Part shown: piece after piece, positions 46,518 through 57,235 of the stretch
Layout of the letters: every line of letters begins with the position of its first letter
Numbering within the stretch: position 1 is the stretch's first letter
Program-made: the position numbers and the translations under genes
The notes under the pieces: model-generated
The model's database searches: none
What the model was told of the DNA's origin: nothing
The model's input: the letters and a program-made list of their open reading frames with translations, nothing else
Source of the DNA: Dehalococcoidia bacterium
Lineage (GTDB): Bacteria; Chloroflexota; Dehalococcoidia; SM23-28-2; HRBIN24
Length of the DNA stretch: 64,000 nucleotides
Direction: 5' to 3'
NCBI GenBank assembly: GCA_034435615.1
Contig: DAOTWZ010000042.1
Location: 1,936-65,935 of the forward strand

Positions 46518-47849
46518 TTGGACGCTGTGCAGCGACTGTCCGGCATACTGCCCGTCACAGCCGGGGTCAACGAGGCGGGACACCTGACCCTGGGCGGTTG
46601 CGATGCTGTCGAGCTGGCCCGCACCTTCGGCACCCCCCTGTACGTCTTCGACGAGGAGACGCTGCGCCTCATGTGCCGCTCCTTCCGGGAGGAGTTCGCC
46701 GCCCGCCACCCCGATAGCCTGGTGATCTACGCCTGCAAGGCCTACATAGGGCGAGCGCTGGCCGCCCTGCTGATGGAGGAGGAGCTGGGAGCGGACGTGG
46801 TGAGCGGGGGAGAGCTGGCCTTCCTGCGCTCCGTGGGCTTCCCGCCGGAGGGCATCTATTTCCACGGCAACAACAAGTCGCCCCAGGAGTTGCGGGAGGC
46901 GCTGGCCTACGGCGTGGGGCGCATCGTAGTGGACAATTTCTATGAGCTGGAGACCCTCTCGGCGCTGGCGGCGGAGGCGGGCCGGAGGCAGGCCGTCCTC
47001 CTGCGCGTCTCCCCCGGCGTCGACCCCCACACTCACGCCAAGACCACCACCGGGGTCCTGGACAGCAAGTTCGGCTTCCCGCTGGCCACCGGGCAGGCGG
47101 AGGAGGCGGTGCGACGAGCGCTGGCCTCGCCCTCGCTGGAGCTGGTGGGGCTTCACTTTCACCTGGGCTCGCCCATCTTCGAGCTGGCGCCCTTCCAGGA
47201 GGCGCTGGGGCTGGTGCTGGCCTTCGCGGCGGAGATGGGGGAGCACCACGGCCTGGAGCTGCGGGAGCTGAGCCCGGGGGGCGGCTTCGCTGTCCAGTAT
47301 GTGCCGGAGGAGCCGCCCCCCGCGGTGGCGGCCTACGCCGAGGCCATCGTCGCCTCGCTGCGAGAGGGATGCCAGCGTCACGGCCTGCCGCTGCCGCGGC
47401 TGGTGGTGGAGCCGGGCCGGGCCATCGTGGCCCGGGCCGGGGTGGCCCTCTATACGGTGGGAGCCAGCAAGGAGGTACCGGGGGTGCGGCGCTACGTGGC
47501 CGTGGACGGCGGCATGGCCGACAATATCCGCCCTGCCCTCTACGGCTCCCGCTACTCAGCCCTGGTGGCCAACAAGGCCCGGGACGAGCGCCGGGAGCGG
47601 GTGACGGTGGCCGGGAAGTACTGCGAGTCCGGGGACGTCCTGCTGTGGGACGTGGAGCTGCCGCCCTTGGAGCCGGGCGACGTCCTGGCCATGCCGGCGG
47701 CCGGCGCCTACGCCCCCGCTATGGCCAGCAACTACAACGCCTCTCTGCGACCGGCGATAGTGATGGTGCGGGACGGGCAGGCGCGTCCCGTGCGCCGCCG
47801 CGAGAGCTACGAAGACCTGATGCGCTGCGAGCTGTGGCCGGAGGGCTGA
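46518..47849 (+). CDS. lysA: Diaminopimelate decarboxylase
   Basis: YACKA, HGNNK, SKFG, HLGSPI, EPGRAIV, GKYCESGD. Confidence 0.95.
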   Translation: MDAVQRLSGILPVTAGVNEAGHLTLGGCDAVELARTFGTPLYVFDEETLRLMCRSFREEFAARHPDSLVIYACKAYIGRALAALLMEEELGADVVSGGELAFLRSVGFPPEGIYFHGNNKSPQELREALAYGVGRIVVDNFYELETLSALAAEAGRRQAVLLRVSPGVDPHTHAKTTTGVLDSKFGFPLATGQAEEAVRRALASPSLELVGLHFHLGSPIFELAPFQEALGLVLAFAAEMGEHHGLELRELSPGGGFAVQYVPEEPPPAVAAYAEAIVASLREGCQRHGLPLPRLVVEPGRAIVARAGVALYTVGASKEVPGVRRYVAVDGGMADNIRPALYGSRYSALVANKARDERRERVTVAGKYCESGDVLLWDVELPPLEPGDVLAMPAAGAYAPAMASNYNASLRPAIVMVRDGQARPVRRRESYEDLMRCELWPEG

Positions 47850-47875
47850 CAGCGCTCGGGCCCCTGGCGGGAGCT

Positions 47876-48916
47876 ATGTGGGGCATCATCGGGCAGGAGC
47901 GGGCGGTGATGGCCCTGGCCGCGGCGGTCAGGCTGGGGCAGACCTCCCACGCCTATCTCTTCGTCGGCCCCAGAGGAGTGGGGAAGCACACCCTGGCCAA
48001 GCGGCTGGCCCAGGCGCTGAACTGCCTGGCTCCGCCGGAGGGCCGGCCCTGCCGGGAGTGTCGCCAGTGCCGACGCATCGAGGAGGGCATCCACGCCGAC
48101 GTCCAGGAGGTGACCGTAGAGGCGGGGCGGCGGGAGGTGCGCATCGGCCAGGTCAGGGAGCTGGAGCGGGCCCTCGCCCTGAAGCCCTACGAGAGCCGCG
48201 TGCGGGTGGCCATCATCGACCCGGCCGATGCCATGAATCAGGAGGCGCAGAACGCCTTCCTGAAGACGCTGGAGGAGCCGCCGCCGGACGTGGTGCTGGC
48301 CCTGGTGACGGCCCGGGAGGAGGCGCTCCTCCCCACCATCCGCTCCCGCTGTCAGCGGCTGGCCCTGGGCCGCGTCCCCCTCTCCGCCCTGGTCGAGGCG
48401 CTGACGGAGCTAGGAGTCCCCCCGGAGACGGCCCGCTACCTGGCCCGCCTCGCCCAGGGGCGTCCGGGCGTCGCCATCGCCCTGGCCCGGGACGAGGCCC
48501 TGCGGGAGCGCTGGGAGCGGGAGCTGGAGCGGGCGGCCAGCCTGCCGGGCCTGGACTTGCGGGAGCGGCTGGCGCTGGCGGAGGAGCTGGCCCAGTCCTA
48601 CTCCCTGCGCCAGGGGCCGGCCGGGGAGGAGAACGGCCAGGGGAGTAGCCCGGGAGCGGACGAGGTCTCGCTGGCCCTGGAGATGTGGCAGGCCTGGTGG
48701 CGGGACGTGCTGCTGGTCCAGCAGGGGGCGCCGGAGGCTGTCCTCCACAGCCACCGCCGCCAGGAGCTGGAGAGGCTGGCGCGGTCGGTGCCGCCGGAGG
48801 AGGTGGTGCGCTTCCTCTCCGCCCTGGGGACGACCCGTCGCTACCTGGAGGAGAACGTCAACGCCCGGCTGGCCCTGGAGGTGCTCCTCCTGGAGGCGCC
48901 GGGAGAGCCCCGCTGA
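47876..48916 (+). CDS. holB: DNA polymerase III delta-prime subunit
   Basis: HAYLFVGPRGVGK, PCRECRQC, AQNAFLKTLEEPP, LPTIRSRC. Confidence 0.92.
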   Translation: MWGIIGQERAVMALAAAVRLGQTSHAYLFVGPRGVGKHTLAKRLAQALNCLAPPEGRPCRECRQCRRIEEGIHADVQEVTVEAGRREVRIGQVRELERALALKPYESRVRVAIIDPADAMNQEAQNAFLKTLEEPPPDVVLALVTAREEALLPTIRSRCQRLALGRVPLSALVEALTELGVPPETARYLARLAQGRPGVAIALARDEALRERWERELERAASLPGLDLRERLALAEELAQSYSLRQGPAGEENGQGSSPGADEVSLALEMWQAWWRDVLLVQQGAPEAVLHSHRRQELERLARSVPPEEVVRFLSALGTTRRYLEENVNARLALEVLLLEAPGEPR

Positions 48917-49103: not shown

Positions 49104-49502
49104 ATGCACCTGGTGGTGGACGGCTACGGGGGCGACCCTCAGGCCCTGGCGGACCAGAGCCTGGTGCGGGAGCTGCTGGACGAGTACCCAGAGCGGCTGG
49201 GCATGACCAAGATCAGCCAGCCGGTGGTCGTTCGCTATGTGGGGCCCAAGCCCCAGGACTGGGGCATCTCCGGCTTCGTCATGATCGCCGAAAGCCACAT
49301 CGCCGTCCACACCTTCCCGGAGCGGGGCATGGTGTGGATGGACATCTTCTCCTGCCGCGGCTTCGACGAGGCGCCCATTCTGGAAGACCTGAGGGAGCGC
49401 TTCGGCCTGACGGAGCTGCGCCTGCAGCGGCTGGAGCGGGGCCTGGAGTACCTGGAGACGGCGGAGGCCGGCCCCCCTCAGCGGCAGACGATGTCCGGAT
49501 AG
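49104..49502 (+). CDS. speD: S-adenosylmethionine decarboxylase proenzyme
   Basis: GISGFVMIAESHIAVHTFPE (E/SH self-cleavage site), DIFSC. Confidence 0.9.
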   Translation: MHLVVDGYGGDPQALADQSLVRELLDEYPERLGMTKISQPVVVRYVGPKPQDWGISGFVMIAESHIAVHTFPERGMVWMDIFSCRGFDEAPILEDLRERFGLTELRLQRLERGLEYLETAEAGPPQRQTMSG

Positions 49503-50326
49503 GCCCGCAGCCGCTCCTCCACCTGGGAGCGAGAGGGGGCGCCGTCCACCCCCTCTTTTTCTATGACCAGGGAGGCGGCGGCAGCGGCGAAGCGGGCCGC
49601 CGCCCAGGCGTCGGCGCTCTCGTAGAAGCGCACCAGGAAGGCGACGGCGAAGACGTCCCCCGCCCCCGTGGGGTCCACCACCCGGGCAGGGAAGGCGTCT
49701 ATGTGACGCCACTCCCCGCGGTGGCAGACCTCAGCTCCCCTCTCCCCCCGCGTGAAGGCGACGATGGGGACGCGCTCTGCCCACCGCTCCAGGACGGATG
49801 GGGCCTGGGCCGGGTCCAGGTCTTCGTCCGAGAGGAAGAGGGCATCGGCGCGGTCCAGGACGGCGTCGGCCCCCCAGCGGTCGGGGGGGAGAGGGCGCAC
49901 CAGCCCCCTCTCGTCCACCTGACGGAGCCACCCCTGGAGGCAGGCGCCCAGGAGGGAGCGGGGGAAGAGGGTGGCCAGGGCAGGATCCACGTCCCCGGCC
50001 ACGGGCCCCAGGAGCACCATCTCCGCCTCCCGCAGGTGGTCGGGCACGTCCGGGGGGCCGATGGCGGGCGCCCGGGCCAGCACCTGCTGGCGACGATGGC
50101 CGCTGGCGTCGTACTCGTTGCGGAACCGGGTGGTGACGGGGCTGGGGACGCGGTGGAGGGTCAGGCCGGGCAGGGTGGGCATCTCTATGGCCGCCGCCGT
50201 CAGGACGATGGTCTCCACTCCGAGACGGGCGGCGGTGAGGCCAGCGTAGGCGGCAGTGCCCCCCAGTCGCCAGCCACCGGGCACCAGGTCCTGGGCCAGA
50301 TGGCCCACTACCAGGAGGCGGGGCAT
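49478..50326 (-). CDS. PfkB family carbohydrate kinase
   Basis: GGTAAYA, TRGERGA, DPTGAGDVF. Confidence 0.88.
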   Translation of the reverse strand: MPRLLVVGHLAQDLVPGGWRLGGTAAYAGLTAARLGVETIVLTAAAIEMPTLPGLTLHRVPSPVTTRFRNEYDASGHRRQQVLARAPAIGPPDVPDHLREAEMVLLGPVAGDVDPALATLFPRSLLGACLQGWLRQVDERGLVRPLPPDRWGADAVLDRADALFLSDEDLDPAQAPSVLERWAERVPIVAFTRGERGAEVCHRGEWRHIDAFPARVVDPTGAGDVFAVAFLVRFYESADAWAAARFAAAAASLVIEKEGVDGAPSRSQVEERLRAYPDIVCR

Positions 50327-50331
50327 CCCCC

Positions 50332-51075
50332 TCAGATACGACGGCCCTGGTTGCGGTTGCGCCGCCGGGGCGAGATCATCACCTTGCGGGCCTCGCCGTT
50401 GCCGATGCTGGAGGTGACGACGTCGGGGTCGTTCACCAGGGCCAGGTGGACGATGCGGCGCTCGGCGGCCGGCATCGGCTCCAGGGTGACGGGGCGACCG
50501 GTCTGCTTGACTCGCTGGGCCATGCGCTGGGCCAGCCCCCGCAGGGCCTCCTCCCGCCGCCGCTTGTAGCCCTCCACGTCCACGGAGACGACGACCTTGC
50601 TCTGGAACTGGCGGTTGATCATGACGTTCACCAGATACTGGAGGGCGGCGAGGGTGGCCCCCCGGCGGCCGATGAGGATGCCCAGGTCTTCCCCCGTGAC
50701 GTCCAAGACGGCGCTGGCGCGGCCGGCGCCGTCGCCCGGGGTCTGGGGGGCGCGCACGGAGACCTGGACGCTGAGGCCCATGAGGCGCAGCATCTCCTTC
50801 AGGTACTCGGCGGCACGGGCCACCTCCGGGGCGTCCGTCCCCTTGACGATGACGGTCCCCTCTTCCTCCTCTTCCACCTCCACGTCCATGACGGGCGAGG
50901 GCTCCAGGGGGACGACCCGCACCCGCGCCTCCTCGCCGCCCAGGCCGAACAGGCCGGGCCGACCGGCGCTGAGTATCTCTACGCTCACCTGCTCTCGGGT
51001 AAGGCCCAGACTGCGCAGGGCCTTTTCGATGGCCTCTTCGACGGTCCTACCGCTTGCCTCGACGCCTTCGCGCAT
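50332..51075 (-). CDS. jag: Jag/EloR/KhpB RNA-binding protein
   Basis: GRTVEEAIEKAL Jag domain, LIGRRGATLAALQ KH domain, ERRIVH R3H domain. Confidence 0.93.
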   Translation of the reverse strand: MREGVEASGRTVEEAIEKALRSLGLTREQVSVEILSAGRPGLFGLGGEEARVRVVPLEPSPVMDVEVEEEEEGTVIVKGTDAPEVARAAEYLKEMLRLMGLSVQVSVRAPQTPGDGAGRASAVLDVTGEDLGILIGRRGATLAALQYLVNVMINRQFQSKVVVSVDVEGYKRRREEALRGLAQRMAQRVKQTGRPVTLEPMPAAERRIVHLALVNDPDVVTSSIGNGEARKVMISPRRRNRNQGRRI

Positions 51076-52021
51076 GGCTCTCCCTCTTGCGTGGCGGTGA
51101 TGTCCTGACGTCCTCCTGAGGCGCCTCTCTGGACGCCGTCGGCTTGGGCGGCGTCGCTGCCGGGGTAGGCATCGGCAGCAACACCTGACGCCAGTTTATA
51201 CCACGAGCGCCGTAAACGAAGTAGCTTATGAATACTGAGATGACATTGCTCACCAACCAGTAGAGGCCAAGGCCGCTGGGCACCAACAGGGTGAACCAGA
51301 CGAACATCAGGGGCATCATCCAGGTGAGCATCTGGTTCATCTGCTGCTGTTCGCGGCTGGTGACCGTGGTGGGGGCGGTGCTCACCCGCTGCTGCAGGTA
51401 GGTGGTGACGCCCACCAATATGGGCAGAATGAAGGTGGCGTCCGGCTGGCCCAGGTGCAGCCACAGAAACCGCTGCTCCAGGGGCAGGGAATCGTAGAGG
51501 TACCGCCAGGGATAGAGCCGCTGGGAGAGGCCGACGATGGCCTCCGGCACGTCCCGCACCATGAGGTTGAGAGCGTGGTAGAGGGCGATCCATACCGGAA
51601 ACTGTACCAACATGGGGAGCAGGCAGCCCAGAGGGTTAACCCCAGCCTCGCGGTAGAGCTTGAGGGTCTCTTCCTGCCGCCGTTTGGGGTCTTTGTATTT
51701 CCTCTGGATCTCCTGCAGGCGAGGCTGCAGGGCGGTCATGGCCCGGGTGGACTGGAACTGGCGTATGGTGAGGGGGAGGGTGACCAGCCTCATGAAGACG
51801 GTGAAGACGATGATGGCCACCCCGAAGGCCCCCAGGAAGGCGTTGTTGAAGAGGATGAGCAGGTTTATCAGGGGGTTGACGAAGAAGGCGTCCCAGGGGT
51901 TGTAGCCCAGGGAGCCGGCGATGAATATCGCCCCGGTGATGAGGGCCATGAGGATGACGGGCAGGCGCTGGCCCAGGGTGGGACGCAGGCCCCCGGCGGA
52001 AGGCTCTCTCTGAGCGCTCAT
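51047..52021 (-). CDS. yidC: Short YidC/Oxa1 membrane insertase
   Basis: IIVFTVFMRLVTLPL, LQPRLQEIQRKYK, NPLGCLLPMLVQFP, PSGLGLYW. Confidence 0.93.
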   Translation of the reverse strand: MSAQREPSAGGLRPTLGQRLPVILMALITGAIFIAGSLGYNPWDAFFVNPLINLLILFNNAFLGAFGVAIIVFTVFMRLVTLPLTIRQFQSTRAMTALQPRLQEIQRKYKDPKRRQEETLKLYREAGVNPLGCLLPMLVQFPVWIALYHALNLMVRDVPEAIVGLSQRLYPWRYLYDSLPLEQRFLWLHLGQPDATFILPILVGVTTYLQQRVSTAPTTVTSREQQQMNQMLTWMMPLMFVWFTLLVPSGLGLYWLVSNVISVFISYFVYGARGINWRQVLLPMPTPAATPPKPTASREAPQEDVRTSPPRKRESHARRRRGKR

Positions 52022-53187
52022 GATGGCTGCACCACGCGGCTGAGAGCGCCGCTGGCCGGGTCCAGCCGGTAGAGGCCGCCGGGCTGGGTGTTGACGAGGG
52101 CCGCGCCATCGATAGGGGCGGGGGAGGCGAGGACGGTGGCCCCTATCTCCACCGGCCCCCATCTGGGAGAGCCAGAGGCGGGGTCCAGGCCGTAGGCCTG
52201 GCCGTCCCGGTTGATGGCGATCAGGACGCCCGGGCCGCTGGCCAGGAGCGGTCGGGCGCGCACTGGCTGCTGGACGTCCTGGGTCCAGAGGAGCTGTCCA
52301 TCCGTCAGCCGCAGGGCATAGAGGCGGCCGTCCAGGTTGGCGGCGTAGACGGTGCCCCCGGCCACCACGGGGGCGGCCCAGAACCAGTTGTCGGCGCGGA
52401 AGGGCTCGGCCCAGGCGGGAGCGCGCGTCCTCACATCAATAGCGTAAAGCCTGCGGTCGAATCCGCCAACCAAGAGGAGGCCATCGGCCAGGACGGGGTC
52501 GGAGATGAGGCCCCCTCTGGCCTCGTAACGCCAGAGCTCCCGCCCCGTGGCCAGGTCCACGGCGTAGAGGTGGCGGTCCAGGGAGACGATGTAGGCCACG
52601 CCCTGGTCGATGAGGGGCCGTGCCCAGACGCCCTTGCCGGTCTGGAAGGGCCAGCCCGGCCTGGGGCGACCGGTGGCCGGGTCCAGGCCGTAGACGCGGC
52701 CATCGTCCGAGGGGACGAGGAGGATGCCGGCCGTCTCGTCCAGGGCCAGGCCGCCGATGATGGGGCCGCCGGTATCGAAGGTCCAGAGGCAATCGCCTGT
52801 CTGGCGGTCCAGGGCGTAGACGCGGCTGTCATAGGCGCCCAGGTAGACGGTGCTGGCGGTGACCACGGGGGCGCCGTATATGGCCTGGAGGCGCAGGTCG
52901 CCCACCTCCTCGCCCGTCTCGGCGTCCGGGCAGCGGCTGTCGGACTCGGGGAAGCGCCAGAGCTGTCGCCAGCTTCCGGCCTCCAGAGCACTGAGGCGTC
53001 CCGCCTCCAGGCTGACGATGACCTGCTGCTGGGCGGGCACCGGGGGCGCCCAGCCCACGGGGCTGGCCACCTGGGCGCAGCCGCTGGCTACTGCCCCCAG
53101 GGCGATGGCAGCCAGGGCCGCCAGGACGCCCGTGCGGCGGCCGGCGCGCGGTCCTCTTCGGTGGCTAGGGGACAGGGTCGTATCCAC
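52018..53187 (-). CDS. PQQ-like beta-propeller lipoprotein (BamB-like)
   Basis: Lipobox VASGC; repeated YA(L/V/I)D...W blades; start uncertain (GTG 53187). Confidence 0.85.
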
Positions 53188-53374
53188 CGGGGTGCCAGGG
53201 ATGACAGCGGAGGAGCCGCCAGAGCGTGAGAAGCCCTCCCTTAAGGACACCGTGCCGCTCCACCGCCTCCCGGCCGTACTGGGAGCAGGTGGGCAAGAAG
53301 CGGCAGGAGGGGGGCCTCAGGGGGGAGACCCACCGCTGGTAGAAGGTGATACCCGTCAGGACTATCCGTTTCAT
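53165..53374 (-). CDS. yidD: Membrane protein insertion efficiency factor
   Basis: [34 protein letters not shown]. Confidence 0.95.
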
Positions 53375-53715
53375 CGTTCGCTGCCCGCCTCACCCGGAGG
53401 CGGGGCTACCCCCGCCCTCGAGAGGAGGCGCAGGGCCGAGCGCTTCAGGGTGTGGTAATCGGCAGCGGCGGCGGCCGGGCGGGCGATGACGACTATGTCC
53501 CAGCCGGGGCGCAACTCCAGAAGGCGTATCCCCTCCCGCAGACGACGCTTCACCTTGTTGCGCACCACAGCCTTGCCGACCCGCTTGCCAGCGACGAAGC
53601 CGAACCGGTTGTAGGGCAGGCCGTTGGGCAGGACTCGTACCACCAGAAGGTCATCGCTGTAGGCGCGGCCCCGTCGGAAGACCTCATCGAAGGCGCGGCG
53701 TCCGCGGAGCCGCAT
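53371..53715 (-). CDS. rnpA: Ribonuclease P protein component
   Basis: [25 protein letters not shown]. Confidence 0.93.
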
Positions 53716-53734
53716 CAGCCCGGCCACGGCCCCC

Positions 53735-53872
53735 TCAGACGGCGAGCCGCCACCTCCCCTTGAGGCGTCGCCGCTTGAGGACGGCCCGTCCGCCCCTGGT
53801 CCGGTTGCGGGCCAGGAAGCCATGCCGCCGCTGGCGACGCCGGTTCTTGGGCTGATAGGTACGCTTGGGCAA
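53735..53872 (-). CDS. rpmH: 50S ribosomal protein L34 (absent from the ORF track)
   Basis: Hand translation from TTG: [45 protein letters not shown]; SD AAGGAGG. Confidence 0.95.
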
Positions 53873-53922
53873 GAGTGCCTCCTTACGCCACCAGGAACGT
53901 CCCTACAGGCGAGGCATGGCCC

Positions 53923-53991
53923 ATTATAAGTCCCGCTGTCGGGAGGGTCAAACCGGCCCTCGTTGACAGCCCCCGTAGCCAGTGTTACCCT
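53923..53991. promoter_or_regulatory. Divergent sigma70 promoters
   Basis: Minus strand TTGACC, 17 bp, TATAAT (53951-53923); plus strand TTGACA, 17 bp, TG-n-TACCCT (53963-91). Confidence 0.8.
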
Positions 53992-54027
53992 GTAGCCGGA
54001 CCGCCCGGCCCCCGGGGTGAGCCTCCC

Positions 54028-54510
54028 ATGGACGTCATCCGCTGCACCGTAATAGACGAGAAGGGGGCCGTCAGCTTCATCGCCCACGCCGATGTCCTGC
54101 CAGCCCTGGTGGCCGCCTGCGCCAACAACCCCTCCTCTGTGGAGGAGCTCCTGGACGGGGCGGAGAACTACTACCGCAACCTCAAGGACTACGTTCTCTC
54201 CGGCCTGGCCGTCTTCGACGAGCAGAACACGCCGGAGAGCCGCGAGGCCATCCGGGCCGCCCTGCGCAGCCTGCCCCCCCACCAGCAGCCCGTCTTCCGG
54301 GTAGTGGACGAGGACACGCAGGAGGCTAGCCTGCGGCCGGTGAAGGCGGGCGCGGTGGTTTTCAACCTGCGGGCCAAGCGCATCATCCAGATCGTCAACA
54401 CCTACCGGGAGATAAAGCGCTCCGGCTACGCACGGGTCTTCGACGGCGAGGGCTTCACGCGGCGGGTCTTCCGCTACCGCCTCCCCGAGGAATGGGCGCT
54501 GGTGCCCTAG
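54028..54510 (+). CDS. Hypothetical globular protein
   Basis: 160 aa, host-like codons, own promoter. Confidence 0.75.
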   Translation: MDVIRCTVIDEKGAVSFIAHADVLPALVAACANNPSSVEELLDGAENYYRNLKDYVLSGLAVFDEQNTPESREAIRAALRSLPPHQQPVFRVVDEDTQEASLRPVKAGAVVFNLRAKRIIQIVNTYREIKRSGYARVFDGEGFTRRVFRYRLPEEWALVP

Positions 54511-54632: not shown

Positions 54633-55850
54633 GTGGCTTACGAGTCGGAAGCCCTTCCCTGGCCGGGACGTCCCCTGTGGGCGGAGATAGACCTGGACGC
54701 TCTCGCCAGCAACGTCCAGGCCCTGAAGCGACGGGTGCAGGGGGCCCAGCTCCTGGCGGTGGTGAAGGCCAACGCCTACGGCCACGGCGCCGTTGGGGTG
54801 GCCCGGGCCGCTCTGCAGGCGGGGGCCGATGGCCTGGCCGTCATCTGCCTGGAGGAGGCGGAGGAGCTGCGCCGGGCTGGTGTGGAGGCCCCCATCCTGG
54901 TGATGGGAGCCAGTCACCCCGGGCAGGCGCGCCGGCTGGTGGAGCTGAGGGTGACCCCCACCGTGGCCGACCGTGAGATGGCGCTGGCCCTGGCCCGGGC
55001 CGCCCACGAGGTGGGAACGGTGCAGCCCGTCCACATCAAGGTGGACACGGGGCTGAACCGCTACGGCCTGCGACCGCAGGAGGCCATCGCCCTGGCGGAG
55101 TCCCTGCGGGAGGTGGGCGCTCTGAAGGTGGAGGGGCTCTTCACCCACTTCGCCAGCGCTGAGGAGGGGGACAAGACCTTCACCCTAGCACAGTACCGCG
55201 CCTTCCTGACGGTGGCCCGGCGGCTGGACTGGGTGCCGGTGCGCCACGTCTCCAACACGGCCACCATTCTGGACATGCCCGAGATGAGCCTGGAGATGGT
55301 GCGGCCGGGCATCGGCCTCTACGGGTATTCGCCGCGAGGCATCGGCGACAGCGCCGGGCTGCGGCCGGTGCTGAGCCTCAAGAGCCGCCTCCTCCGCCTG
55401 ACCCGTCTCAAGCCCGGCGAATCGGTGAGCTACGGTCGCACCTGGCGGGCGCAACGGCCCAGCACCATCGGCCTGGTGGCCTGTGGCTACGCCGACGGCC
55501 TGCCGCGTCTCCTGTCCAATCGGGGCTGGGTGCTGGTGCGAGGGCGACGGGTGCCCATCGTCGGACGTATCTGCATGGACATGTGCATGGTGGACGTCAC
55601 CGAGGTCCCTGGTGTACAGATAGGAGATGAAGTAGTGATCATTGGGAAACAGGGGATGGAGCAGATAACAGCAGACGAGATCGCCGAGGCGTGCGGCACC
55701 ATCAGCTATGAGATCCTGTGCGGCATCGGCCTGCGCGTCCCCCGCATCTTCCTTCGTCAGGGCCAGGTGGTAGAGGTGGAGGCGCGGCTGGGAGCGTCCC
55801 CAGCGGGGACGCCCGTACCGGGCGGCGTGGGGAGCCTCTCCCAGACATGA
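54633..55850 (+). CDS. alr: Alanine racemase
   Basis: AVVKANAYGHG, VDTGLNRYG, CGYADGL, VGRICMD. Confidence 0.96.
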   Translation: MAYESEALPWPGRPLWAEIDLDALASNVQALKRRVQGAQLLAVVKANAYGHGAVGVARAALQAGADGLAVICLEEAEELRRAGVEAPILVMGASHPGQARRLVELRVTPTVADREMALALARAAHEVGTVQPVHIKVDTGLNRYGLRPQEAIALAESLREVGALKVEGLFTHFASAEEGDKTFTLAQYRAFLTVARRLDWVPVRHVSNTATILDMPEMSLEMVRPGIGLYGYSPRGIGDSAGLRPVLSLKSRLLRLTRLKPGESVSYGRTWRAQRPSTIGLVACGYADGLPRLLSNRGWVLVRGRRVPIVGRICMDMCMVDVTEVPGVQIGDEVVIIGKQGMEQITADEIAEACGTISYEILCGIGLRVPRIFLRQGQVVEVEARLGASPAGTPVPGGVGSLSQT

Positions 55851-57235
55851 GCACGTCAGCGCCGCGCCGACCAGCCAGCAGGAACAGCGCCGGGGAGGGC
55901 AGCCGTTACAGCCCTCTGGTGGTCTTCGGCATCGCCCTCTTCGCCATGCTGACCTTCTACGGGGTGCTGGCCGTGGCCTCCCGCCTGGACGACTACTTCC
56001 TCCCCGGCAATCAGCTCAAGCTGGGGCCGCTGGGCATGCTGCCGGGGGTGGACGCCGGCGACGAGCCGGAGGCGGCCACCATCGAACAGCGCATCAACGT
56101 CCTCCTGCTGGGGCTGGACCGCCGGCCCGATGACCCGCCCAACGCTGCCACCCGCACCGACACGGTGGCCATAGTCTCCATCGACCCCTACAGCAACACG
56201 GCGGGGGTGCTGAGCATACCCCGCGACCTCTGGGTGGAGATACCGGACGGACGCGGCGGCTTCTTCCCTCAGCGCATCAACGTGGCCTACGAGTTCGGCG
56301 AGGCCGGGGTGGTGAACTACCCGGGCGGGGGCATCGCCCTCATCAAGGACACCATCAAACACAACTTCGGCATCAACATAGACCACTATGTGATTCTGGA
56401 CTTTCAGAACTTCGTGGAGATCGTGGACACCCTGGGCGGCATAGAGGTGGATGTGCCGGAGTACGTGTACGACCCGGCCTACAACGATTGCAACCGCTGT
56501 CCCTATCAGTTCGTGGAGTTCGAGCCGGGCCCCCAGCAAATGGACGGCTGGCACGCCCTGGCCTACGCCCGCATCCGTTACGGCTCCGACGACCTGCGCC
56601 GCATCGAGCGGCAGCAACAGGTGATGCTGGCCATCTTCCAGAAGGCGACGAGCCTGGGCATCCTCACCAACCCCAGCCGCGTCAAGTCCCTGTACGACCA
56701 GTTCAACAACTCGGTGAAGACGGACGTGAGCGCCGCCCGGGCGCTGGGGCTGGCCCTGAAGGCGAGGGAGATCCCTCTGGAGCGGGTGCGCATGCTCTCT
56801 CTGAGGGACGCCGTCTACAGCTTCGTCACCGACGACGGCGCCTCGGTGTTGGGCTGGGACGAGGAGAAGGTGCAGCAGATAGTGGCTCGCCTCTTCCTGG
56901 ACGGCCAGGTGGAGGCGGAGGCGGCCCGCATCGAGGTGCAGAACGGGGCGGGCATACCGGGTCTGGCCACCCAGGTGTCAGGGCTGCTGATGGGGAAGGG
57001 GCTGCCCGAGGACTGGGTCTCCACGGCCCTCAGCCCCAACAGCGGCGTGGCGCGGACGGTCATCTACAACCTGGGAGGCAAGCAGTATACGGCCCGCAAG
57101 CTGGCGGAATGGCTCGGCCTCCCCGGCGACCGTGTGGTGAGCGACCCCGCGCAGGCGCCAGCGCCGGTGAACGGTCCGGCCGACATCATCGTCCTGCTGG
57201 GGACGGACGCCCGCACCCTGGCCAGCGGCGGCTAG
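55847..57235 (+). CDS. LCP family protein with C-terminal LytR domain
   Basis: TM helix, NVLLLGLD, RTDT, SIPRDL, LAYARIR, RIERQQ, IEVQNG. Confidence 0.92.
   Translation: MSTSAPRRPASRNSAGEGSRYSPLVVFGIALFAMLTFYGVLAVASRLDDYFLPGNQLKLGPLGMLPGVDAGDEPEAATIEQRINVLLLGLDRRPDDPPNAATRTDTVAIVSIDPYSNTAGVLSIPRDLWVEIPDGRGGFFPQRINVAYEFGEAGVVNYPGGGIALIKDTIKHNFGINIDHYVILDFQNFVEIVDTLGGIEVDVPEYVYDPAYNDCNRCPYQFVEFEPGPQQMDGWHALAYARIRYGSDDLRRIERQQQVMLAIFQKATSLGILTNPSRVKSLYDQFNNSVKTDVSAARALGLALKAREIPLERVRMLSLRDAVYSFVTDDGASVLGWDEEKVQQIVARLFLDGQVEAEAARIEVQNGAGIPGLATQVSGLLMGKGLPEDWVSTALSPNSGVARTVIYNLGGKQYTARKLAEWLGLPGDRVVSDPAQAPAPVNGPADIIVLLGTDARTLASGG

Follow-up and report, generated by a model that had tools for sequence, protein, structure and literature searches.

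We analyzed a stretch of 64,000 nucleotides from a Dehalococcoidia bacterium (assembly GCA_034435615.1, contig DAOTWZ010000042.1, positions 1,936 to 65,935), hereafter called the window, in which a gene for a putative β-propeller lipoprotein lies between yidD and yidC. On the minus strand, open reading frames (ORFs) and their Pfam and NCBIfam matches delineate a compact cluster, from 50332 to 53951, in the order rpmH-rnpA-yidD-propeller-yidC-jag. Its features are listed below from upstream to downstream, PQQ standing for pyrroloquinoline quinone.

53923..53951, minus strand: sigma-70-like promoter TTGACC-17-TATAAT (11/12 matches), upstream of rpmH
53735..53872, minus strand: rpmH (ribosomal protein L34), the first gene of the cluster (PF00468, E = 4.4e-21)
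~53371..53715 (start approximate), minus strand: rnpA (RNase P protein; PF00825, E = 6e-27)
53165..53374, minus strand: yidD (membrane protein insertion efficiency factor, 69 residues; PF01809, TIGR00278)
52018..53187, minus strand: gene for a predicted PQQ-like (BamB-like) 8-bladed β-propeller, putative lipoprotein, 389 residues (PF13360, E = 5.9e-39)
53077..53187, minus strand: predicted lipoprotein signal peptide (Arg-rich n-region, h-region, lipobox A-S-G-C, Cys37 at 53077-53079)
52018..52021, minus strand: ATGA junction of the propeller gene and yidC (TGA stop 52018-52020, ATG start 52019-52021)
51047..52021, minus strand: yidC, 324 residues (PF02096, 179.9 bits, cut-off 35; TIGR03592, 186.4 bits, cut-off 84.3)
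50332..51075, minus strand: jag/khpB (Jag_N, KH and R3H domains; NF041568 Jag_EloR, 205.7 bits, cut-off 145)

From rnpA through jag, each junction of the cluster is overlapping. The TGA stop of rnpA and the ATG of yidD also form a shared ATGA, and jag starts 29 nucleotides upstream of the yidC stop. YidD itself reaches full-length scores of 112.8 bits for PF01809 (cut-off 27) and 93.6 bits for TIGR00278 (cut-off 40). The stretch that runs from the yidD stop (53165) to the hydrophobic core of the propeller's signal peptide contains no in-frame ATG, GTG or TTG, so that the propeller gene must begin within yidD, either at GTG 53187, with an overlap of 23 nucleotides, or at the alternative GTG 53250, with an overlap of 86 nucleotides. 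We preferred GTG 53187 because the gene calls of homologs begin at the equivalent position, one of them using ATG; a start candidate with an identical 23-nucleotide overlap with yidD is present in four of the loci surveyed below (L001-L004). Between positions 49900 and 54700, one promoter-like site was found, against 0.1 expected from shuffled sequences, and no terminator-like site was detected, which fits a single transcription unit.

The propeller protein scores 134.5 bits against PF13360 (PQQ_2), well above the cut-off of 27.6. Its AlphaFold2 model, calculated from an alignment with 36 relatives, has a mean predicted local distance difference test score (pLDDT) of 93.4 and a predicted template modelling score of 0.88. 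When this model was submitted to Foldseek, the list was headed by 8-bladed designed propellers and the best natural match was BamB from Escherichia coli, with E ~1e-21, a template modelling score of ~0.7 and ~20% identity. We are thus confident in the prediction of an 8-bladed PQQ-like fold.

We then asked how far the arrangement extends beyond the window. The survey covered one genome per species (GTDB r232), its query being an alignment of 10 close homologs of the propeller, and the six operon proteins were placed by tblastn in the 80 returned loci (L001 and following). It was seeded from the propeller, and the loci with enough flanking DNA to be informative were 76 on the downstream side and 70 on the upstream side. 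Seventy-nine of the 80 loci are labelled as Dehalococcoidia, Dehalococcoidales, SAR202, Chloroflexota or unclassified metagenome-assembled genomes, and genes of the operon are present in every one of them; L060, from a member of the Streptosporangiaceae, is the sole exception, a paralog that does not lie in an operon of this kind. The yidC gene comes immediately after the propeller gene in 73/76 loci, and yidD together with rnpA comes immediately before it in 69/70, so that the order is kept in about 96-99% of the informative loci, while the identity of the propellers to the window protein goes from 53% down to ~30%. From the stop codon of the propeller gene to the first codon of yidC, the distance is -4 nucleotides in 16 loci (ATGA or GTGA), -1 nucleotide in one and 4-30 nucleotides in most others. 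Starting from the YidC side, two more lineages (P0171 and P0213) were found to carry the propeller despite the absence of a Pfam match in their records, and every lineage inspected for a YidC relative of at least about 50% identity carries the propeller as well. Across the sampled Dehalococcoidia, the linkage is thus conserved, far beyond chance. This YidC-linked putative lipoprotein is real and class-wide, and it is apparently undescribed, our literature searches for a link of YidC with a propeller, with a BamB-like protein or with Chloroflexota having returned no description of the association.

The same loci throw light on the N-terminus of the propeller protein. In the window, the n-region of the signal peptide holds five Arg and the lipobox has Ala at position -3, instead of the canonical Leu, Val or Ile ([LVI][ASTVI][GAS]C). 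Most orthologs have canonical lipoboxes such as LAGC, LVGC, LSGC or LATAC. Among the 75 loci with a complete propeller N-terminus, a Cys follows the hydrophobic stretch in 74 (70 by the strict pattern and four confirmed by eye), the sole exception being the non-orthologous L060. Cys37, G45 and W46 are nearly invariant among homologs; the lipobox is usually followed by a P-x-G-W motif, in the family form C-x(4-7)-P-x-G-W, and a motif of the N-W-[FY]-W type ([NRG]W[FY]W) occurs in 66/80 loci. On these sequence grounds, the propeller is a putative lipoprotein that would be exported and lipid-modified at Cys37.

Two observations concern the variable parts of the protein. The n-region of the window signal peptide (53100-53150) contains a twin-arginine stretch with the motif GRRTGVL, and a good motif resembling that of the twin-arginine translocation (Tat) pathway occurs in a few orthologs, for example PRRSFLLAL in L011; most orthologs have none. 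Since the twin arginines are not conserved among them, we rejected Tat export as a trait of the family. Blade 1, for its part, tolerates lineage-specific insertions of widely differing character, the remaining fold and the lipobox-PxGW start being retained. These insertions are Cys/Asp-rich in L005, L007 and L008, Pro/Ser/Thr/Ala-rich in L006 and L012, and about 100 residues long and rich in charged residues in L037, L055, L066 and L076, while that of the window has 13 residues including one Cys (52900-52940).

The YidC protein encoded next to this propeller is a minimal form. Its family matches extend across the conserved core of five transmembrane (TM) segments. Its closest relative of solved structure is YidC2 from Bacillus halodurans (E = 7.8e-34), the alignment running from residue 42 of the window protein and from residue 12 of the crystal construct. 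The AlphaFold2 model (pLDDT 81.6) displays an N-terminal TM helix (residues 16-37) and, directly after it, the conserved core, with helices 66-80, 82-108, 112-126, 130-155, 198-214, 223-246 and 249-270. These helices make up a membrane core in which the first core TM is followed by a coiled-coil hairpin on the cytoplasmic side. Neither in the model nor in the alignment is there a P1-like domain or any other large extracytoplasmic domain: the N-terminal TM helix and the next one are separated by residues 38-65 only (~28 residues), and the only outer segments of the model are approximately 38-65, with a helix at 42-61, and the loop 156-197.

An earlier note on this DNA, made from the letters alone, had claimed that the propeller gene overlaps yidD, that it shares an ATGA with yidC and that the YidC is short and devoid of a large extracytoplasmic domain. 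The three claims hold: the overlap with yidD is obligatory with either GTG (53187 or 53250), the ATGA stands at 52018-52021, and the 324-residue protein has nothing but residues 38-65 between its first two TMs. The note had also named in advance what would refute its reading, a linkage that is not conserved and the lack of a predicted or detected interface. As to the first, the counts given above for yidC (73/76) and for yidD and rnpA (69/70) fell clearly on the side of conservation.

The N-terminal TM helix of YidC is present in the clade of the window (L001-L009). In many other Dehalococcoidia, SAR202 among them, we noticed that the first codon of yidC comes just a few nucleotides past the propeller stop and directly at the conserved core ('..IWN..II.PMIN..'), as in L011, L014-L016, L018, L019, L021, L025-L028, L059 and others. 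An in-frame stop lies just upstream of these starts, so that the corresponding YidC proteins have neither the N-terminal TM helix nor a lipobox. A bacterial YidC with five TMs and no N-terminal anchor is unusual.

To assess co-variation of evolutionary rates, we compared pairwise distances of the operon proteins across 67 taxa, the concatenated RnpA, YidD and Jag distance being regressed out as a control. The propeller and YidC distances correlate with r = 0.865, the highest value among all gene pairs. Their partial correlation is 0.64, a value reached in 0/500 permutations, against 0.27 for propeller and Jag and 0.16 for YidC and Jag under the same control, these values being read with the caveat that the taxa are related and the controls imperfect. 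When a single protein was split at random into two halves, the same treatment gave partial correlations of 0.28-0.60. The propeller and YidC distances thus co-vary as tightly as the halves of one protein.

Expression data are available for a cultured member of the class. In Dehalococcoides mccartyi, DET1041, annotated as a PQQ enzyme repeat domain protein, is co-expressed with DET1039, which encodes Jag (r = 0.93; PMC5102406). In strain 195, DET1041 is two locus numbers away from DET1039, and from these locus numbers the same arrangement seems to exist in this genome-reduced organism, DET1040 being presumed to be yidC. A search with the propeller of a member of the Dehalococcoidales (L022) returned no named Dehalococcoides protein among its best 120 homologs, so that the link to D. 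mccartyi is drawn from the published annotation and co-expression of DET1041 and DET1039. The apparent retention of the propeller (DET1041) in so reduced a genome suggests that its function is important.

The nature of the cell envelope in these bacteria restricts what this function could be. Dehalococcoidia are reported as monoderm and devoid of outer-membrane genes, and peptidoglycan as an ancestral trait of the class that Dehalococcoidales and the marine radiation comprising SAR202 have lost (PMC10284905). Lineages of both kinds, reported with or without peptidoglycan, carry the propeller-yidC linkage. Because it occurs in both, and in a class reported without an outer membrane, the function of the propeller requires neither peptidoglycan nor an outer membrane.

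We propose that the propeller lipoprotein, at the outer face of the cytoplasmic membrane, works with YidC, and possibly with YidD, in the biogenesis of membrane proteins, a reading that we put at a little short of an even chance. The six genes would be transcribed as one messenger from the promoter upstream of rpmH, and the overlapping stop and start codons (the GTG in the 3' end of yidD and the ATGA at yidC) would couple translation, with joint synthesis of YidD, the propeller and YidC. The precursor of the propeller would then be exported and lipid-modified at Cys37. As only a few positions separate this residue from the beginning of the fold, the disc could be held at the membrane surface, beside helix 42-61 and loop 156-197 of YidC. 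There it might serve as a protein-binding platform, either holding or folding those loops and tails of YidC clients that are exported, or connecting YidC with other machinery of the envelope. Such a function is thought to be supplied elsewhere by the P1 domain of Gram-negative YidC or by the lumenal propellers of EMC1. The data show the gene arrangement and its conservation, the fold, the lipoprotein signal, the co-variation with YidC and, in D. mccartyi, the co-expression of DET1041 and DET1039; from them we infer export and lipidation, a contact with YidC and an activity as chaperone or scaffold. The reading of the earlier note is thus supported in part: a conserved, coupled and co-evolving linkage is established, the propeller is a strong candidate, as yet unproven, for a partner of the YidC insertase on its outer face, and a putative role as a dedicated insertase subunit appears plausible. 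A bolder version would be a two-piece insertase, in which a minimal YidC core, in many lineages devoid of an N-terminal anchor, is capped on its outer face by a stoichiometric, lipid-anchored 8-bladed propeller, as an independent bacterial invention of the EMC3/EMC1 design of the eukaryotic ER membrane complex; we consider this version rather unlikely.

Several points weigh against a partnership of the propeller with YidC. The rpmH-jag cluster already mixes unrelated genes, for ribosomal protein L34, the RNase P protein and an insertase, so that membership of it is by itself weak evidence for a shared function. In L041 (7142-8470) and L052 (7182-8513), rpmH-rnpA-yidD-propeller is followed by a class-III aminotransferase gene, with no yidC or jag within 5.8 kb: the propeller has remained with yidD, and yidC-jag is elsewhere. 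In L064 (7082-7899) and L074, two genes of the HEPN/PaREP1 family separate the propeller from yidC, leaving a gap of ~0.9 kb. The survey began from the propeller, and its counts thus describe loci that carry one, not the share of all yidC genes in Dehalococcoidia or other Chloroflexota. The co-variation of the two proteins could reflect a shared lineage-specific or envelope-specific selection without contact. Lastly, the complexome supplements of D. mccartyi CBDB1 contain no PQQ, YidC or Jag entries (PMC6005880).

The main rival explanation takes up some of these points. The propeller could be an extracytoplasmic scaffold or chaperone with a housekeeping role and no binding to YidC, for instance in the anchoring or assembly of the surface layer (S-layer) or in the folding of secreted proteins, the operon giving it nothing more than constitutive, growth-linked expression. 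Such a role would agree with the functional mixture of the cluster, with the loss of the yidC link in L041 and L052 and its interruption in L064 and L074 while the link to yidD is kept, with the general use of PQQ-like propellers as protein-binding modules, paralogs of which are fused to Ser/Thr kinases, and with the presence of S-layers in Dehalococcoidia (PMC10284905). It does not account for the class-wide maintenance of the exact position between yidD and yidC with overlapping codons, nor for a co-variation with YidC far above that with Jag, which is equally linked. We regard this explanation as possible but doubtful. The kinase fusions, seen among more distant relatives, also bring to mind an extracytoplasmic sensor or ligand-binding module that would report the state of the envelope, like the PQQ-propeller ectodomains of AfsK-type Ser/Thr kinases, and that would regulate YidC or be co-regulated with it instead of assisting it. 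The window protein indeed gives a partial NCBIfam match to the AfsK propeller, but its 86 bits are far under the cut-off of 1300 bits, and in none of the 79 operon loci is a kinase or signalling domain fused or adjacent to the propeller. A sensor seems to us improbable.

Two further identities were tried and rejected. The matches to the Pfam PQQ repeat and the occurrence of a tetrathionate hydrolase among the fold matches could indicate a PQQ-dependent dehydrogenase or another propeller enzyme. However, the scores for the dehydrogenase families, 68.3 bits for the alcohol-dehydrogenase subfamily TIGR03075 and 22.8 bits for TIGR03074, are far from the respective cut-offs of 480 and 832. The mature protein of ~350 residues is a bare propeller without added catalytic elements, where such enzymes have ~550-800 residues, and its conserved residues are mainly Trp, Gly, Tyr and Pro, which we read as structural positions of the repeats. 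An enzymatic identity is thus very improbable. Even harder to believe is that the protein is a true BamB, that is, the lipoprotein subunit of the outer-membrane β-barrel assembly machinery (BAM). The fold and the putative lipoprotein nature match, and automatic annotations of the Joint Genome Institute (JGI) name relatives 'BamB'. With 133.3 bits for TIGR03300 (cut-off 285.2) and 95.7 bits for NF008351 (cut-off 423), the window protein nevertheless remains far below both equivalog cut-offs, in line with its low identity to the E. coli protein; its hosts are the reported monoderms without outer-membrane genes already described, and no BamA-like gene was seen among the scanned gene products of the window or of the loci. 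The JGI label 'outer membrane protein assembly factor BamB', given to proteins of this family in hosts reported to be monoderm, looks like a systematic mis-annotation.

A parallel with BamB can still be instructive for the proposed partnership with YidC. BamB (YfgL), a protein-binding scaffold, has the same size, the same 8-bladed PQQ-like propeller and the N-terminal Cys of a lipoprotein, as predicted for the window protein, and in diderm bacteria it belongs, as an accessory subunit without catalytic role, to a machine that assembles membrane proteins. By contrast, the genomic partner of the window propeller is the inner-membrane insertase YidC, in a host lineage reported to be monoderm (PMC10284905) and thus without an outer membrane or a BamA to be served, and the window family has motifs of its own, C-x(4-7)-P-x-G-W right after the lipobox and N-W-[FY]-W.

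Another parallel is offered by the eukaryotic pair EMC1-EMC3. The earlier note had stated that the luminal part of EMC1 is a PQQ-like propeller and that its partner EMC3 is of the Oxa1 family; in agreement with it, EMC1 has two lumenal β-propellers and EMC3 is YidC-like (PMC7785296). The comparison is apt in structural terms: in the ER membrane complex, a core of the Oxa1/YidC type is combined with a large propeller on the non-cytoplasmic side, as it would be in Dehalococcoidia. EMC1 differs in that it is a transmembrane protein with two propellers within a multi-subunit complex, whereas the window propeller is a putative lipoprotein with a single one. Moreover, EMC3 derives from the archaeal Ylp1/DUF106 branch and not from bacterial YidC. 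The window propeller has no match to the EMC1 models (PF25293 Beta-prop_EMC1_N and PF07774 EMC1_C) at E <= 0.1. Nine of 37 relatives do match PF25293 (best E = 5.6e-8), along with several other β-propeller models, and we read these matches as a generic similarity between propellers. A specific homology to EMC1 was thus rejected for want of a match in the window protein. The suggestion of a bacterial analogue of EMC1-EMC3 stands as an analogy and falls as a homology; the likeness is one of convergence only.

Within bacteria, the closest functional comparison could be the P1 domain of Gram-negative YidC, an extracytoplasmic, non-catalytic module borne by the YidC core. P1 is a β-supersandwich fused into YidC between TM1 and TM2. 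It spans ~300 residues of the same polypeptide, whereas Dehalococcoidia have a separate gene for a putative propeller lipoprotein, which could act comparably in trans. The YidC paralogs of Gram-positive bacteria (SpoIIIJ/YidC1 and YqjG/YidC2) are likewise short and without P1, and share the same rpmH-rnpA-yidC-jag neighbourhood. Firmicute YidCs are themselves lipoproteins. Here, in contrast, YidC carries an ordinary TM helix at its N-terminus or, in many lineages, lacks an N-terminal anchor, and the putative lipoprotein is the separate propeller.

YidC is regarded as an insertase that works alone or in association with Sec, and to our knowledge no dedicated extracytoplasmic partner of it is known in bacteria. 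If the two-piece version is true, the propeller would be without described precedent among bacteria as a dedicated extracytoplasmic subunit of YidC. More generally, a partnership with a class-wide, translationally coupled propeller would show that the minimal YidC core is able to engage, in trans, a module on its outer face, in parallel to the fused P1 domain and to the propellers of EMC1. It would also give a role to the 'BamB-like' proteins of bacteria without an outer membrane, which are now routinely labelled as outer-membrane assembly factors. The host groups matter for bioremediation, in the case of Dehalococcoides, and for ocean carbon cycling, in that of SAR202.

Three ORFs on the plus strand lie next to the operon:

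53875-54510, plus strand: ORF of 211 residues, divergent from rpmH, with a coding-like G+C content at third codon positions of 0.86 and no Pfam match at E <= 1e-4
54633-55850, plus strand: alanine racemase gene, adjoining the operon
55718-57235, plus strand: gene of the LytR-CpsA-Psr (LCP) family, adjoining the operon

The alanine racemase and LCP genes suggest that the source organism has a peptidoglycan wall with attached polymers. Such a wall matches reports for early-branching Dehalococcoidia, for example Tepidiforma. Conservation also extends to the genes downstream of jag, with a PfkB-family kinase gene and polyamine genes in the window (49104-50326) as well as in L081 and L083 (6532-10302); the polyamine genes are for an S-adenosylmethionine decarboxylase in the window and for deoxyhypusine synthase-like and arginase-family proteins in L081 and L083. 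Further along, holB (DNA polymerase III delta'; 47369-48916, plus strand) was delimited by its longest ORF, which has a Gly/Arg-rich N-terminus of ~170 residues outside the Pfam match, and its true start is probably internal.

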